Below are positions 1-31,443 of a stretch of 64,000 nt of DNA, one piece after another (within the stretch, counting starts at the first letter, position 1; each line of letters opens with the position of its first letter). Location: the NCBI RefSeq assembly GCF_002854065.1, contig NZ_CP024147.1; one strand, written 5' to 3'. A program made the position numbers and the translations under genes. The DNA is from Escherichia coli. Lineage in GTDB: Bacteria > Pseudomonadota > Gammaproteobacteria > Enterobacterales > Enterobacteriaceae. The notes under the pieces were generated by a model, which ran no database searches, was not told where the DNA came from, and saw nothing but the letters and a program-made list of their open reading frames with translations.

Positions 1-234
1 TCACCCTTTGACGTGGTGATATGGATGACGGATGGCTGGCCGCTGTATGAATCCCGCCTGAAGGGAAAGCTGCACGTAATCAGCAAGCGATATACGCAGC
101 GAATTGAGCGGCATAACCTGAATCTGAGGCAGCACCTGGCACGGCTGGGACGGAAGTCGCTGTCGTTCTCAAAATCGGTGGAGCTGCATGACAAAGTCAT
201 CGGGCATTATCTGAACATAAAACACTATCAATAA
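1..234 (+). CDS. insB: IS1 transposase InsB, C-terminal fragment (5' end outside window)
   Basis: ORF frame open from position 1; protein matches InsB C-terminus. Confidence 0.85.
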
Positions 235-249
235 GTTGGAGTCATTACC
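1..249 (+). mobile_element. IS1 right-end fragment (3' part of insB plus right terminal inverted repeat); the element continues upstream of the window
   Basis: Translation ends ...[29 protein letters not shown], the recognised InsB C-terminus; DNA ends ...aacactatcaataagttggagtcattacc at 249, matching the IS1 terminus. Confidence 0.85.
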
Positions 250-1713
250 GAAAAAGGTTACTGGTTTCACGCTTATCAACCCGAAGATCTTTGTACCATC
301 CACAATCCAATGGGAGATTTGCAGGATTTTATCGCATTGGTTAAAGATGCTAAAAAATTTGGTATCGATATCATTCCTGATTATACCTTTAACTTTATGG
401 GAATCGGGGGTAGTAGTAAAAATGACCTGGATTATCCCTCTGCTGATATACGAGCGAAGATCAGTAAAGATATAGAAGGTGGTATCCCTGGCTATTGGCA
501 AGGTCAGGTTTTGATTCCATTTATTATCGATCCAGTAACAAAAGAACGTAAACAAATCCATCCAGAAGATATACATCTCACTGCAAAAGACTTCGAAGCT
601 AGTAAAGATAATATTTCTAAGGATGAATGGGAAAACCTCCATGCATTAAAAGAAAAGCGTTTAAACGGAATGCCTAAAACAACCCCAAAAAGTGACCAGG
701 TTATTATGCTGCAAAATCAATACGTTCGTGAAATGCGAAAATATGGCGTACGAGGTTTACGTTATGATGCGGCAAAACACTCAAAACATGAACAAATAGA
801 AAGATCAATAACCCCACCGCTTAAAAATTATAATGAGCGATTACACAATACTAACTTATTTAACCCAAAATATCATGAAAAAGTCGTTATGAATTACATG
901 GAATATCTGGTAACTTGCCAGTTGGATGAACAACAAATGTCATCGCTACTTTATGAAAGAGATGATTTAAGCGCCATTGATTTTTCATTGCTCATGAAGA
1001 CGATAAAAGCCTTTTCATTTGGTGGCGATCTCCAAACCCTTGCATCAAAACCGGGTTCCACAATCTCAAGCATCCCATCAGAAAGACGGATATTGATTAA
1101 CATTAACCACGATTTTCCTAACAATGGCAATCTTTTCAATGACTTTCTATTTAACCATCAACAAGATGAACAATTAGCAATGGCATATATGGCCGCTCTC
1201 CCGTTCAGCAGGCCTTTAGTTTACTGGGATGGCCAAGTATTAAAATCAACGACTGAAATTAAAAATGATGATGGGTCGACGCGTGTCGGCGGTGAGGCGT
1301 GGCTTAATAAAGGTTGCTCTACCTATCAGCAGCTCTACAATGAATTCCACGCATTATATATAGATAAAGCAGGAATATGGAGCGCATTTGAGGGTGTATT
1401 TGCAACTAAAAACGTTCTGGCCTTTAGTCGTGGGGATTCTGTGAATATTAATCACTCTCCTCATGACGGACTAGTTATAATAAATAAAGGAAACGAAGAA
1501 GTTGAAGGTACCTGGCCTAACAAATTGCAACCTGGAAAATATAAAAACATGGGGAGTAATAGCGTTAACATTATTATTAATAATACCCGAAAATTTATCC
1601 CCCCTGGTAAAGTATTTACGCTTAGAGGCGGAACTCTAAATATCAATATTCCTGGGCGTAGCGCTCTTCTTTTAGGGAAAACAGGAGAACTGCCGAACTA
1701 TCTCTATTTGTAA
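250..1713 (+). pseudogene. Alpha-amylase family (GH13-like) gene, 3' fragment interrupted by IS1
   Basis: Reading frame is open from the first base after the IS1 end (EKGYWFHAYQPEDL...); contains GH13-like regions (DYTFNFMG, GLRYDAAKH); N-terminal part of the barrel missing; AT-rich codon usage; hairpin terminator follows. Confidence 0.6.
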
Positions 1714-1726
1714 TTTAATGTTATAT

Positions 1727-1748
1727 CTGCCCCGCTAAAACGGGGCAG
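1727..1748 (+). terminator. Hairpin downstream of amylase-like gene (ctgccccg-ctaaaa-cggggcag)
   Basis: Perfect 8-bp inverted repeat directly after stop codon; no strong T-run. Confidence 0.45.
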
Positions 1749-2006
1749 ATAATATGTTTAGTTTACTGACGGTCATTTTGCAGTGAAGCCATTTACTGTT
1801 TTTTATCGACCAGATAATCTGTTCTCTGATGGTAATTCCCCCCTAACCTGTTGCTTTAGTTATTCATTTCCTGTCTCACTTTGCCTTAATACCCTACGTT
1901 AAATGTTACTAATTTGTTGTTTTTGATCACAATAAGTAAACAATATGTCGCTTTTGTGCGCATTTTTCAGAAATGTAGATATTTTTAGATTATGGCTACG
2001 AAATGA

Positions 2007-3026
<1,020 letters not shown>

Positions 3027-7079: not shown

Positions 7080-7091
7080 CACCGCCCCCAT

Positions 7092-7350
7092 GCCGGAGGC
7101 GACGCTGCGCGTCTTGTCCGGCCTACGAGAGTGTAGGTCGGATAAGGCGTTTACGCCGCATCCGACAATCGGCGCACCCTGCCGGAGGCGATGCTTACGC
7201 GTCTTGTCCGGCCTACGGAAATGTAGATCGGATAAGGCGTTTACGCCGCATCCGACATTCGGCGCATCCATGCCGGAGGCGACGCTGCGCGTCTTGTCCG
7301 GCCTACGAGAGTGTAGGTCGGATAAGGCGTTTACGCCGCATCCTACAATC
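7092..7350. repeat. Three tandem ~90-bp REP/BIME units in gabT-gabP spacer
   Basis: Unit gccggaggcgacgctgcgcgtcttgtccggcctacg...cggataaggcgtttacgccgcatccg repeated three times with few substitutions; classical REP palindromes. Confidence 0.9.
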
Positions 7351-13867: not shown

Positions 13868-15202
13868 TTAATTTAAAGCACTGCGCAATTGCTGTGCTAC
13901 CTGTCGCGCCATACTTTCGCTAACGATATTCGTAAACGAGAGCAATAATCCTCCGTCCTCGCTTGAGCGGATACGCCAGTCGCTAAGTGCCTGTACGGCA
14001 AGACCAGCAGCATTGGCTTTATGCACGAATGTCACGTCATTACCTGCTAGTTTGATCACCATCTGGATACCGCCTTTTTGCGGCACAACCTGAAATCCCT
14101 GCTGCGTAAGTGCCTGCTCAATCCACTGCCGTCGCTGGGCATAATGCTGGCGCATTTTCTTCAGATGCCGCCAGAAATGCCCCTCACGGATGAAATCTGC
14201 CAGTGTGTTCTGCCACAGTACGGGTACAGCACATGGTTCCAGTGACGCCTGCTGCCGGAATTGCGAAATCTGCTCCACCGGCACCACCAGCCACGCACAG
14301 CGCAATGCAGGAAATAGCGCTTTGCTGAATGTTCCGGCATAAATCACCCGCTGCGGCGCGTCGAGACTTTTTAGTGCCGGTAACGGCTTACCGTGATAGC
14401 GAAACTCACTGTCGTAATCATCTTCAATAATCCATGCCTGACTACGCTCTGCCCATTCCAGTATCTGATACCTACGCGCTAAAGAGAGTGCCACACCCAG
14501 CGGGCTTTGGTGTGCCGGAGTAATCAGGGCAAAACGCGCATCAGGATAATTTTGTATTCCGCTTGTGACATCCAGTCCGTTGTCATCAACCGGCACAGGT
14601 AAAATTTCCAGACCGTGGCGAGTGACAATCGGGCGAATCAGCGGAAAGCCGGGATCTTCCATCCACATCCCGTCTCCCGGTTGCGCCAGAGCGTGCAGAA
14701 TTAAAGCCATTGAGGCCGCATAACCGTGAGTGATAAAGACCTGCTCTGGCTGACAATCAATCCCACGTGAAACGCGTAAATAATCAACAATAGCCTCGCG
14801 CAAGGCCGCCTCGCCGCAGACATCACCTAATGCCAAATCAAAACGCGTCTGGGTACGCAGACGGCGGCCCATCACCCGCGCCCACAATTCACGCGGAAAA
14901 AGATCAAGTGCAGGTAGCCCCATCTGAAAAGGCAGCGGCTGCTGACTTTCACCAGCAAAAGCCACGACATCCACAGCAGACTGTTGCGGATGTATCTGCT
15001 CACTGACAAAGGTACCCGCCTGTCCCCGCCTGACCAGCCATCCCTGCGCCACCAGCTCAGCATAAGCATTTTCGACAGTGGATCGAGAGACACCCAGCTC
15101 CTGCGACCAGGTACGGCTCGAGGGTAGCCTTGCGCCAGGTTTCAGTTCTCCTTGCTCGATAGCCGTTTTTAACTGACGGGCGATATCCTGATAACGTGGC
15201 AT
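13868..15202 (-). CDS. MocR/GabR-type transcriptional regulator (N-terminal GntR HTH fused to a large C-terminal domain of aminotransferase size)
   Basis: 444-aa ORF; N-terminus MPRYQDIARQLKTAIEQGELKPGARLPSSRTWSQELGVSRSTVENAYAELVAQGW is a GntR HTH followed by a ~350-aa domain; divergent from next gene. Confidence 0.8.
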   Translation of the reverse strand: MPRYQDIARQLKTAIEQGELKPGARLPSSRTWSQELGVSRSTVENAYAELVAQGWLVRRGQAGTFVSEQIHPQQSAVDVVAFAGESQQPLPFQMGLPALDLFPRELWARVMGRRLRTQTRFDLALGDVCGEAALREAIVDYLRVSRGIDCQPEQVFITHGYAASMALILHALAQPGDGMWMEDPGFPLIRPIVTRHGLEILPVPVDDNGLDVTSGIQNYPDARFALITPAHQSPLGVALSLARRYQILEWAERSQAWIIEDDYDSEFRYHGKPLPALKSLDAPQRVIYAGTFSKALFPALRCAWLVVPVEQISQFRQQASLEPCAVPVLWQNTLADFIREGHFWRHLKKMRQHYAQRRQWIEQALTQQGFQVVPQKGGIQMVIKLAGNDVTFVHKANAAGLAVQALSDWRIRSSEDGGLLLSFTNIVSESMARQVAQQLRSALN

Positions 15203-29626: not shown

Positions 29627-30334
29627 ATGAATACCCAACTTAAATACGGGAGAACCTGGCATTATCCTTTCTCCCCCGGCACCACCAGCGATGACCGCAT
29701 TAACGCCGATTACTGGCAGGATTTACAGGCCATCGCGCAACTGGTGCATACAGAAAAACTCGACGGCGAAAATAACTGCCTTAACCGCTACGGTGTGTTT
29801 GCCCGTTCCCATGCCGCGCCTACGCAGTCGGCATGGACCTATAAAATTCGCCAGCGTTGGCAACTGCTGAAAAACGATCTCGGCGACCTGGAGTTGTTTG
29901 GCGAAAATCTCTACGCCGTTCATTCCATTGAATACCGCGCGCTGGAACAGGACTTTTACCTGTTTGCCGTTCGCTGCCAGGATATGTGGCTGAGCTGGGA
30001 AGAGGTGCAGTTTTACGCCGCCCTGTTTGATTTCCCCTGCGTTCCCGAAATCTCCGGCCCGCAGCCGGGGAATGATGAAAAAAGCTGGCAACGTGATTTT
30101 CTGGCACTGACCAATGCGCGCGGCGCGTTCGATCCCTGGGATACACAAACCGGGCAACCCTGTACTCTGGAAGGCATTGTCAGCCGGAATCGTGATGCGT
30201 TTTCCGTCGCTGACTTTTCGCATAACGTCTTCAAGTATGTGCGCAAAAATCATGTCAAAACCACTGTGCACTGGAAACGACACTGGCAACGGGCGCGGAT
30301 GGCCCATGAGTTCGCTTATGGAGAACAGTCATGA
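29627..30334 (+). CDS. ATP-dependent RNA ligase-like nucleotidyltransferase (Rnl2-type catalytic domain only)
   Basis: 235-aa ORF with covalent nucleotidyltransferase motifs in canonical order and spacing: motif I EKLDGEN, motif [12 protein letters not shown], motif IV LEGIVSR, motif V FKYVRK. Confidence 0.75.
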
Positions 30335-31443
30335 TTTGGCAGCTTACCGACGATAAACGCTGGTCGACACTACGCCAGCGTTTCAGTTGGGTTGAGGAGA
30401 TGCATCACACGCCACAAGACCCGGAGCATCATGGTGAAGGTGACGTCGGCGTGCATACCGAAATGGTGCTTAACGCCCTTGTTACTCAGCCAGAATTCCA
30501 GCAACTCCCCGCTCAACAGCAGGAAGTTTTATGGGCGGCGGCGTTATTACATGATGTTGAAAAGCGCAGCACTACCGTGCAGGAAAACGGACGTATTCAG
30601 TCGCCGGGCCATGCTCGTCGGGGCGAACTGACGGCCCGGCTGATTTTGTGGCGCGATATCCCAACGCCGTTCGTGCTGCGCGAGCAAATCGTTGCGCTGG
30701 TGCGTCTGCATGGGTTACCGCTATGGTTACTGGAACGTCCGGAACCGGAGCGTTTGTTGCTCACGGCTGCAATGCGCATCGACACGCGTCTGCTCACTTT
30801 GCTTGCTCGTGCCGATCTGCTTGGTCGCCAAAGCCCGGATCAGCAATCAATGCTGGAACGCATCGATCTGTTCGAGCTGTTTTGCCAGGAGCAACAGTGT
30901 TGGGGAAAAGTGCGCTCGTTCGTGTCTGATTCCGCACGCTGGCATTACCTGACCCATGAGCAAAGTTCTCCTGATTTTGTTCCCTGGGAGGCTGAACCTT
31001 TTGAGGGCATTTTGCTGTGTGGCTTACCGGGTATGGGCAAAGATCGCTATATCAATGAACAGTGCCAGGGAATGGACGTTATCAGCCTTGATGATATGCG
31101 GCGGCGAATCAATGCCAATCCGGACGACAAAACCGCCACCGGGCGTATTGTGCAACAGGCAAAAGAAGAGGCACGCGTTTTTTTACGCCAGAAAAAGCCG
31201 TTCATCTGGAATGCAACGAACTTTACCCGCCAGCTTCGTAGCCAGCTCATCAGCCTGTTTACGGCTTACGGCGCACGAGTAAAAATAGTTTATCTTGAAG
31301 TGCCATGGGCGCAATGGAAGCAGCAAAATGCCAGACGCGAGTATGCAGTTCCTGAAGCGGTCGTGATGCGGATGGCCTCAAGGCTGGAAGTTCCTCAACC
31401 TGATGAAGCACATAGCGTGGAGTATCGGGTGATTGAAAGGTAA
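30331..31443 (+). CDS. Bifunctional HD-domain phosphoesterase / 5'-OH polynucleotide kinase (HD-Pnk architecture)
   Basis: 370-aa ORF; N-terminal HD metal-ligand pattern ([18 protein letters not shown], further His and Asp); C-terminal P-loop GLPGMGKD followed by [17 protein letters not shown] and [16 protein letters not shown], resembling the T4 Pnk kinase domain; start overlaps upstream stop (ATGA). Confidence 0.75.

Follow-up and report, generated by a model that had tools for sequence, protein, structure and literature searches.

Adjacent deletions and recombination between insertion sequence (IS) copies are documented causes of missing target duplications, and adjacent deletions often lengthen in steps (PMC11708052). 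The gene ygaQ, on which an IS1 element abuts in the DNA described here, has been studied in other respects. In Escherichia coli K-12, ygaQ and ygaR are reported to be separate or fused open reading frames (ORFs) depending on the strain, and the 110-aa K-12 'YgaQ' ORF, when over-expressed, is reported to behave as a nuclease of ssDNA and as a mitomycin C resistance factor (PMC4725251). Experiments in PMC7229825 took ygaQ as an example of a horizontally acquired gene that is silenced by H-NS and has an intragenic promoter.

We compared with these systems the ygaQ locus at the start of a 64-kb stretch of E. coli DNA (the window, that is, the whole of the DNA that was analysed). As judged from its sequence, the ygaQ copy in the window is a pseudogene remnant fused to the right end of IS1, and we put the probability that its 5' part was removed by an IS1-adjacent deletion or by IS1-IS1 recombination at roughly 70%. 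A first-pass annotation of the same DNA had recognized an IS1 end, a GH13-like frame, a 3' gene fragment and a foreign composition, all of which stood. Its reading of the locus as a simple insertion gained no support in the form proposed, the predicted fusion products and the close relatives speaking indirectly against it.

The IS1 end and the ygaQ remnant

The window opens inside IS1, 519 nt into the element, and the last third of IS1 lies within the window (positions 1-249, plus strand). This 3' terminal part is of the IS1A/IS1B type. All 249 of its 249 nt matched the ends of complete 768-bp copies: the final 249 nt of the complete copies in CUWW06 and in the NCTC assembly GCA_900449015.1 were 100% identical to window positions 1-249. 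At 1-231, the window encodes the final 77 residues of the IS1 transposase, which matched PF03400 (DDE_Tnp_IS1) at E=3e-42 over positions 55-131 of the 131 in the profile, and translation together with Pfam defined a coding part in the insB frame at 1-234 (plus strand) that ends with a TAA stop at 232-234. The right terminal inverted repeat (IRR) was located at 223-249 on the minus strand by an exact 27-nt match, with its outer end at base 249. Its sequence, GGTAATGACTCCAACTTATTGATAGTG, was matched once in the 64-kb window, compared with 0 matches expected from shuffles. The terminal inverted repeat of the IS1 family is ~23 bp long and begins GGTAATGACTCCAACTTATTGAT; the left end of IS1 reads GGTGATGCTGCC. 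The inverted repeat, the InsB stop and the identity to complete copies bore out the earlier placement of the IS1 right end at 249. Compared with IS1A/IS1B (768 bp), the window copy is alike in its terminal inverted repeat, in the InsB C-terminus and in 249/249 nt, but it begins inside the element, and its left end lies beyond the window. The frames of insB and ygaQ coincide; because the TAA at 232-234 intervenes, no fusion protein would be made, and an insB-ygaQ fusion was rejected.

It was found that the ygaQ frame is open from base 250, immediately after IS1, to a stop at 1711-1713, with the first ATG at 310. The feature at 250-1713 (plus strand) was assigned to a 5'-truncated, GH13-like ygaQ comprising codons 264-750 and the stop, by its 100% nucleotide identity to E. 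coli 100416 and by Pfam. The identity to 100416 extends over window positions 250-2050. The remnant corresponds to nt 790-2253 of the intact 2253-nt gene of that strain (locus L001, 5001-6464), which encodes a protein of 750 aa (WP_032281467.1), so that exactly 263 codons (the 5' 789 nt) are missing from the ygaQ of the window. These results agreed with the earlier proposal of a 3' fragment with an open frame directly behind IS1 and a methionine only later. In 100416, the intact gene lies between tRNA-Ile (ileY) and glaH, directly upstream of glaH and without IS1. The remnant was regarded as the ygaQ orthologue on the basis of its identity to 100416 and of the conserved site upstream of glaH, beside ileY. 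The locus is at the edge of the ssrA/ileY (CP4-57-like) island, beside the glaH-lhgO-gabDTP cluster. At least 80% of window 250-2050 was covered at one place in 3,895 of 5,426 E. coli genomes. The product of the 100416 gene is named 'alpha amylase C-terminal domain-containing protein', and intact 750-aa proteins of strains other than K-12, such as WP_032281467.1 and WP_021557110.1, are named 'alpha-amylase family glycosyl hydrolase'.

The longest ATG-initiated ORF in the remnant, at 310-1713 (plus strand), encodes 467 aa; it was taken from the ORF list and is called as a gene in draft assemblies. The exact 467-aa product is on record, on contigs ending in IS1. No Shine-Dalgarno sequence was evident by inspection upstream of the ATG at 310. 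If the 110-aa K-12 'YgaQ' ORF represents the N-terminal part of the gene, it falls in the portion that is absent here.

Profile search confirmed that the ORF belongs to the amylase family, as had been suggested. The catalytic domain PF00128 scored 24.1 bits against a curated cut-off of 22, with the match starting at profile position 49, and PF02806 (Alpha-amylase_C) scored 29.5 bits against a cut-off of 21.2. Both matches were weak, as were the PDB matches to the B. subtilis alpha-amylase and to R. bromii Amy16 (E about 1e-7), indicative of a divergent family member. In the PDB alignment, residues 217-312 of full YgaQ were aligned with residues 6-99 of the B. subtilis alpha-amylase, and the GH13 barrel would thus start near residue 215 of full YgaQ. 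With such a start, the break at 263/264 would remove the first strands of the barrel and the whole N-terminal domain of ~215 residues. The break is located ~50 residues into the GH13 catalytic barrel. Because the break lies inside the barrel, the remnant was considered to be a pseudogene; on this predicted domain layout, it cannot be a functional barrel enzyme.

Region II, GLRYDAAKH (residue 432), is kept in the remnant and aligned with GFRYDAAKH of the B. subtilis enzyme. Candidates for region III (NYMEYL) and region IV (NINHDF) were picked out by inspection alone. In region I, DIIPDYTFNF, the same PDB alignment placed a Phe opposite the His of the B. subtilis enzyme; a His in region I is canonical for GH13. 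A MalS-type amylase equivalog was rejected: the NCBIfam scores were far below threshold, and therefore no equivalog assignment was made. The parts of PMC4725251 and PMC7229825 available to us contain no enzymatic data on full-length YgaQ.

Composition and surroundings of the remnant

The remnant has a GC content of 37.9% and a GC3 of 32%, compared with 54-58% and 66-68%, respectively, for glaH, lhgO, gabD and gabT. A search of 5.8 billion proteins showed that the YgaQ family is almost confined to Escherichia. In E. coli, 15,629 members form one cluster; beside it stand a homologue from E. albertii with 60% identity and one metagenomic protein with 34% identity, and beyond these, the next matches were cyanobacterial amylases with 22-24% identity. 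The AT-rich composition, the H-NS literature (PMC7229825) and the confinement of the family to Escherichia therefore support a horizontal origin of ygaQ, which was known already. The first reading of the locus had come to the same view from the AT-rich codon usage relative to the gab genes, and the GC3 values upheld it.

A published H-NS-repressed intragenic promoter fragment, 'ygaQ 1.1', corresponds to window 841-987 (plus strand), as determined by primer mapping: primers given in PMC7229825 map to 841 and to 961-987. The same source describes this promoter as H-NS-repressed and AT-tract-dependent. Because the fragment is retained, spurious transcription inside the remnant is possible. In a promoter scan of positions 1-2100, sites were no more numerous than in shuffled sequence, and no promoter created by IS1 is therefore claimed.

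Directly after the ygaQ stop, a consensus scan detected a terminator-like, GC-rich hairpin at 1724-1751 (plus strand) with an 11-bp stem containing 7 GC pairs, which presumably functions as a terminator. The whole spacer between ygaQ and glaH (1714-2048) shows no difference from strain 100416, whose locus is intact, and the intergenic region at 1752-2048 (plus strand) is accordingly intact. This region would have a regulatory role for glaH; we take the glaH/csiD promoter of E. coli K-12 to lie within the ygaQ-glaH intergenic region. The glaH (csiD) gene itself, the first of the glaH-lhgO-gabDTP cluster, is at 2049-3026 (plus strand), as assigned by the RefSeq annotation of identical sequence and by Pfam CsiD. 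Because the intergenic region is intact and the hairpin follows the ygaQ stop, the cluster is probably unaffected.

Three further features of the window were recorded. Between gabT and gabP, at 7083-7350, a tandem 90-bp REP/BIME-like unit is present in 3.0 copies with 88% matches. The near-identical CUWW06 and 100416 are 180 bp shorter at this array, and the copy number of the unit therefore varies among very close relatives. In the stpA-nrdH region, at 13868-15202 (minus strand), a MocR/PdxR-like regulator of 443-444 aa carries a GntR HTH and a class I/II aminotransferase domain. It is called 'pdxR' or 'PLP-dependent aminotransferase family protein' by RefSeq in other strains, and to our knowledge it is absent from the K-12 map of this region. 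Between emrB and luxS, at 29627-31443 (plus strand), an accessory module consists of two genes with a 4-nt overlap. The first encodes an RNA ligase family protein (PF09414, E=4e-28) and the second an AAA_33/KTI12-like ATP-binding protein of 370 aa, and the two resemble a pair for RNA repair or a kinase-ligase pair. In only 998 of the 5,426 complete E. coli genomes was the module query matched over 80% or more of its length.

The IS1 junction and its probable origin

The exact 249/250 junction, sought as a single-piece match, was found in 0 of the 5,426 complete RefSeq E. coli genomes, and 0 matches to it were obtained among the GTDB representative genomes. The same junction was present in draft contigs from GCA_035821435.1, from Logan ERR3970133 and from one ENA metagenome (loci L003, L004 and L006, respectively), and two further samples are recorded as holding the Logan contig. 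Every contig with the window junction breaks inside IS1. Because the junction was assembled independently in a draft genome, a Logan contig and a metagenome, it was considered to be real and to mark a lineage. It can thus be used as a lineage marker, absent from the complete genomes and present in a handful of draft or metagenomic assemblies.

The nearest relative, the NCTC assembly GCA_900449015.1, showed 0 mismatches over 12.7 kb. In this genome, an identical and identically oriented IS1 lies 1011 bp upstream of the position seen in the window, stopping 222 bp short of the ygaQ ATG. This IS1 is flanked by CCCGTAATT on the left and TATAGAACT on the right; the two flanks are unrelated, and there is therefore no target duplication. 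The left flank lies within a yagJ-like gene of a CP4-57-like island. CUWW06 showed 2 mismatches over 12.8 kb and has an identical IS1, also in the same orientation, 51 bp deeper into ygaQ than the window. Its left flank adjoins intA (GCCAATTTG), again without a target duplication, and a junction of the CUWW06 type was also found in one gut-metagenome contig. In other contigs with the same GlaH allele, the right end of IS1 is in ypjA. Relative to glaH, the right junctions are at -8111, -2810, -1799 (the window) and -1748, and the orientation of IS1 is identical across every relative examined.

The left junction of the NCTC type is widespread in Logan samples, where the 42-aa remnant at this junction was found in 47 blocks, and it was found in none of the complete genomes. 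Such a distribution is as expected of an older, fixed IS1 end with variable right end-points. A 110-aa IS1 fusion product is indexed in the NCTC sublineage only. As a separate observation, the CP4-57-like island of GCA_900449015.1 contains two IS1 copies that are identical, in direct orientation and separated by 4.9 kb (locus L019, 747-1514 and 6423-7190). A clean duplication of 9 bp (GATTTTAAC) surrounds the first; the second has none. With two direct copies, the island is primed for further IS1-IS1 deletion.

IS1 junctions in ygaQ were also found in other E. coli. Simple IS1 insertions, with perfect 9-bp duplications and the 5' fragment in place, are present in the complete genomes MB10, Ec-2939, a7 and 2015-01-466, the duplicated sequences being CGGCAAACA, GGTCCAGCT, AAATTTCCC and TAACATTCC. 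Six complete genomes with IS1 in the first third of ygaQ were examined; four had a simple insertion and two were of the deletion type. Outside the lineage of the window, simple insertions into ygaQ are thus common. With the window and CUWW06 included, the right end of IS1 was verified at eight or more different positions within the first ~840 nt of ygaQ. Spacings among the best 30 matches listed suggest ~19 different IS1 sites in the same orientation, within ygaQ or a short way upstream of it. IS1 prefers AT-rich DNA, with which its repeated entry into ygaQ is in keeping. At several other junctions of the locus there is no duplication, and the left flank is foreign: an integrase, a Qat anti-phage gene cluster or a yagJ-like gene; with or without a duplication, all junctions at the ygaQ locus have the same orientation. 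In E. coli 23AR1101 (locus L029, 634-1826), the left flank of IS1 consists of qatD and another gene of the Qat anti-phage system, and the ygaQ remnant is further interrupted by an IS5-like ISKpn26.

In the deletion that we favour, an upstream IS1, already present in the same orientation, would have attacked an AT-rich target in ygaQ by intramolecular transposition, and the DNA between the old IS1 site and the new target would have been lost, leaving the 249/250 junction. The same outcome would follow from homologous recombination of two IS1 copies in direct orientation. By either route, the 5' 789 nt of ygaQ would be gone from this position. The left flank of the window copy and any target duplication are beyond the window. 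The signature of a foreign flank without a duplication was seen in GCA_900449015.1 and CUWW06, and for the window copy we infer the left flank and hence the deletion mechanism. These two close relatives do not share a left junction, and any scenario therefore has to include more than one event. The alternative put forward in the first-pass annotation was a simple transposition into an intact ygaQ. Such an insertion would be at codon 264-266 and would duplicate GAAAAAGGT, leaving the 5' 798 nt just to the left of IS1, preceded by ileY. The four independent cases with perfect 9-bp duplications demonstrate that IS1 repeatedly enters the AT-rich ygaQ in this way, and 100416, intact, without IS1 and 100% identical over the remnant, indicates that an intact target existed in the clade. 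However, a 0-SNP relative already has an identical, same-orientation IS1 1 kb upstream, and neither close relative has a target duplication. A simple insertion also makes a prediction for the 5' side. With the 9-bp duplication, the product would have 274 aa (YgaQ 1-266 followed by GDAANLLI from the IS1 left end); with an 8-bp duplication, it would have 272 aa. The 5' allele of ygaQ is identical in 100416 and GCA_900449015.1, and the predicted fusion is therefore well defined. Neither product is on record in the assembly gene index, although the 3' product is, and control products are indexed: the 110-aa IS1 fusion of the NCTC sublineage, and the 201-aa YgaQ-GDAANLLI protein that a simple insertion of the MB10 type yields, the latter in 25 index blocks. 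Absence from this index is not proof, as products of annotated pseudogenes go unrecorded (none is recorded for the CUWW06 remnant), and five contigs only carry the 3' (467-aa) product. Because the 5' fusions were absent while control products were indexed, a junction without an adjacent 5' fragment is favoured. Simple insertion is thus unsupported as it had been stated and is the distinctly less probable course of events, although it deserves more weight than the other alternatives.

Intramolecular replicative transposition yields inversions as well as deletions. An IS1-mediated inversion or long-range rearrangement, by which the 5' part of ygaQ would now be elsewhere in the chromosome beside another, inverted IS1 copy, is consistent with the content of the window. 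No evidence was found in its support: deletions account for all related junctions examined, no relative has IS1 in the opposite orientation, and the window runs collinear with other E. coli for 25 kb or more. A rearrangement of this kind is very improbable. A chimeric join at the IS1 repeat was also considered, as multi-copy IS1 often breaks or mis-joins assemblies. But the junction was assembled independently in the NCBI draft, in the Logan contig (with its two further samples) and in the ENA metagenome, and both a complete genome and a metagenome contain a second junction 51 bp away. An assembly artefact can therefore be practically dismissed.

Significance and comparison with known systems

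There is nothing unusual or new in finding ygaQ truncated by IS1. The case adds to the known IS-mediated inactivations of accessory, H-NS-silenced genes, ygaQ being a pseudogene in K-12 as it is, and it matters little alone; equivalent IS1-truncated copies of ygaQ are already annotated by RefSeq. What needs correcting is the fate of the missing 5' part of ygaQ, for which deletion is more probable than displacement. Considered with its relatives, the window provides a natural series of IS1 junctions, with and without duplications, that bears on the preference for AT-rich DNA and on the erosion of islands. A livelier reading would be that the 467-aa ORF is alive and, separately, that the ygaQ edge is an unusually active IS1 erosion front, at which nested deletions remove the H-NS-silenced island. 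Transcripts of the ORF could start at the H-NS-repressed intragenic promoter, which is retained, or be read out of IS1, and the ORF product could keep a putative activity of the C-terminal two-thirds of YgaQ, e.g. carbohydrate or nucleic-acid binding. We regard this reading as highly doubtful.

The remnant occupies the same locus, directly upstream of glaH/csiD, as ygaQ of other E. coli, and it is equivalent to the 3' 1464 nt of the 100416 gene. It differs from intact ygaQ in that the first 263 codons are absent, with IS1 in their place; in K-12, ygaQ/ygaR is a pseudogene already. The closest annotated counterpart is ACNHKQ_RS17485 of CUWW06, described by RefSeq as 'incomplete; missing N-terminus'. 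It shares with the window the same IS1, the same orientation, the same gene and a near-identical background, whereas its junction is 51 bp further in, and its left flank is visible, beside intA. Among described processes, the locus on the favoured reading resembles the IS-adjacent deletions and IS-IS recombination events documented for IS1, IS903 and IS150, for example in the Lenski long-term lines (PMC11708052), in which the IS is kept and the flank is lost. As in those deletions, the relatives of the window have no target duplication, and the right end-points form a series in close strains. Unlike in those deletions, the signature of a missing duplication and a foreign left flank was seen in the relatives only, and for the window copy itself we infer it.
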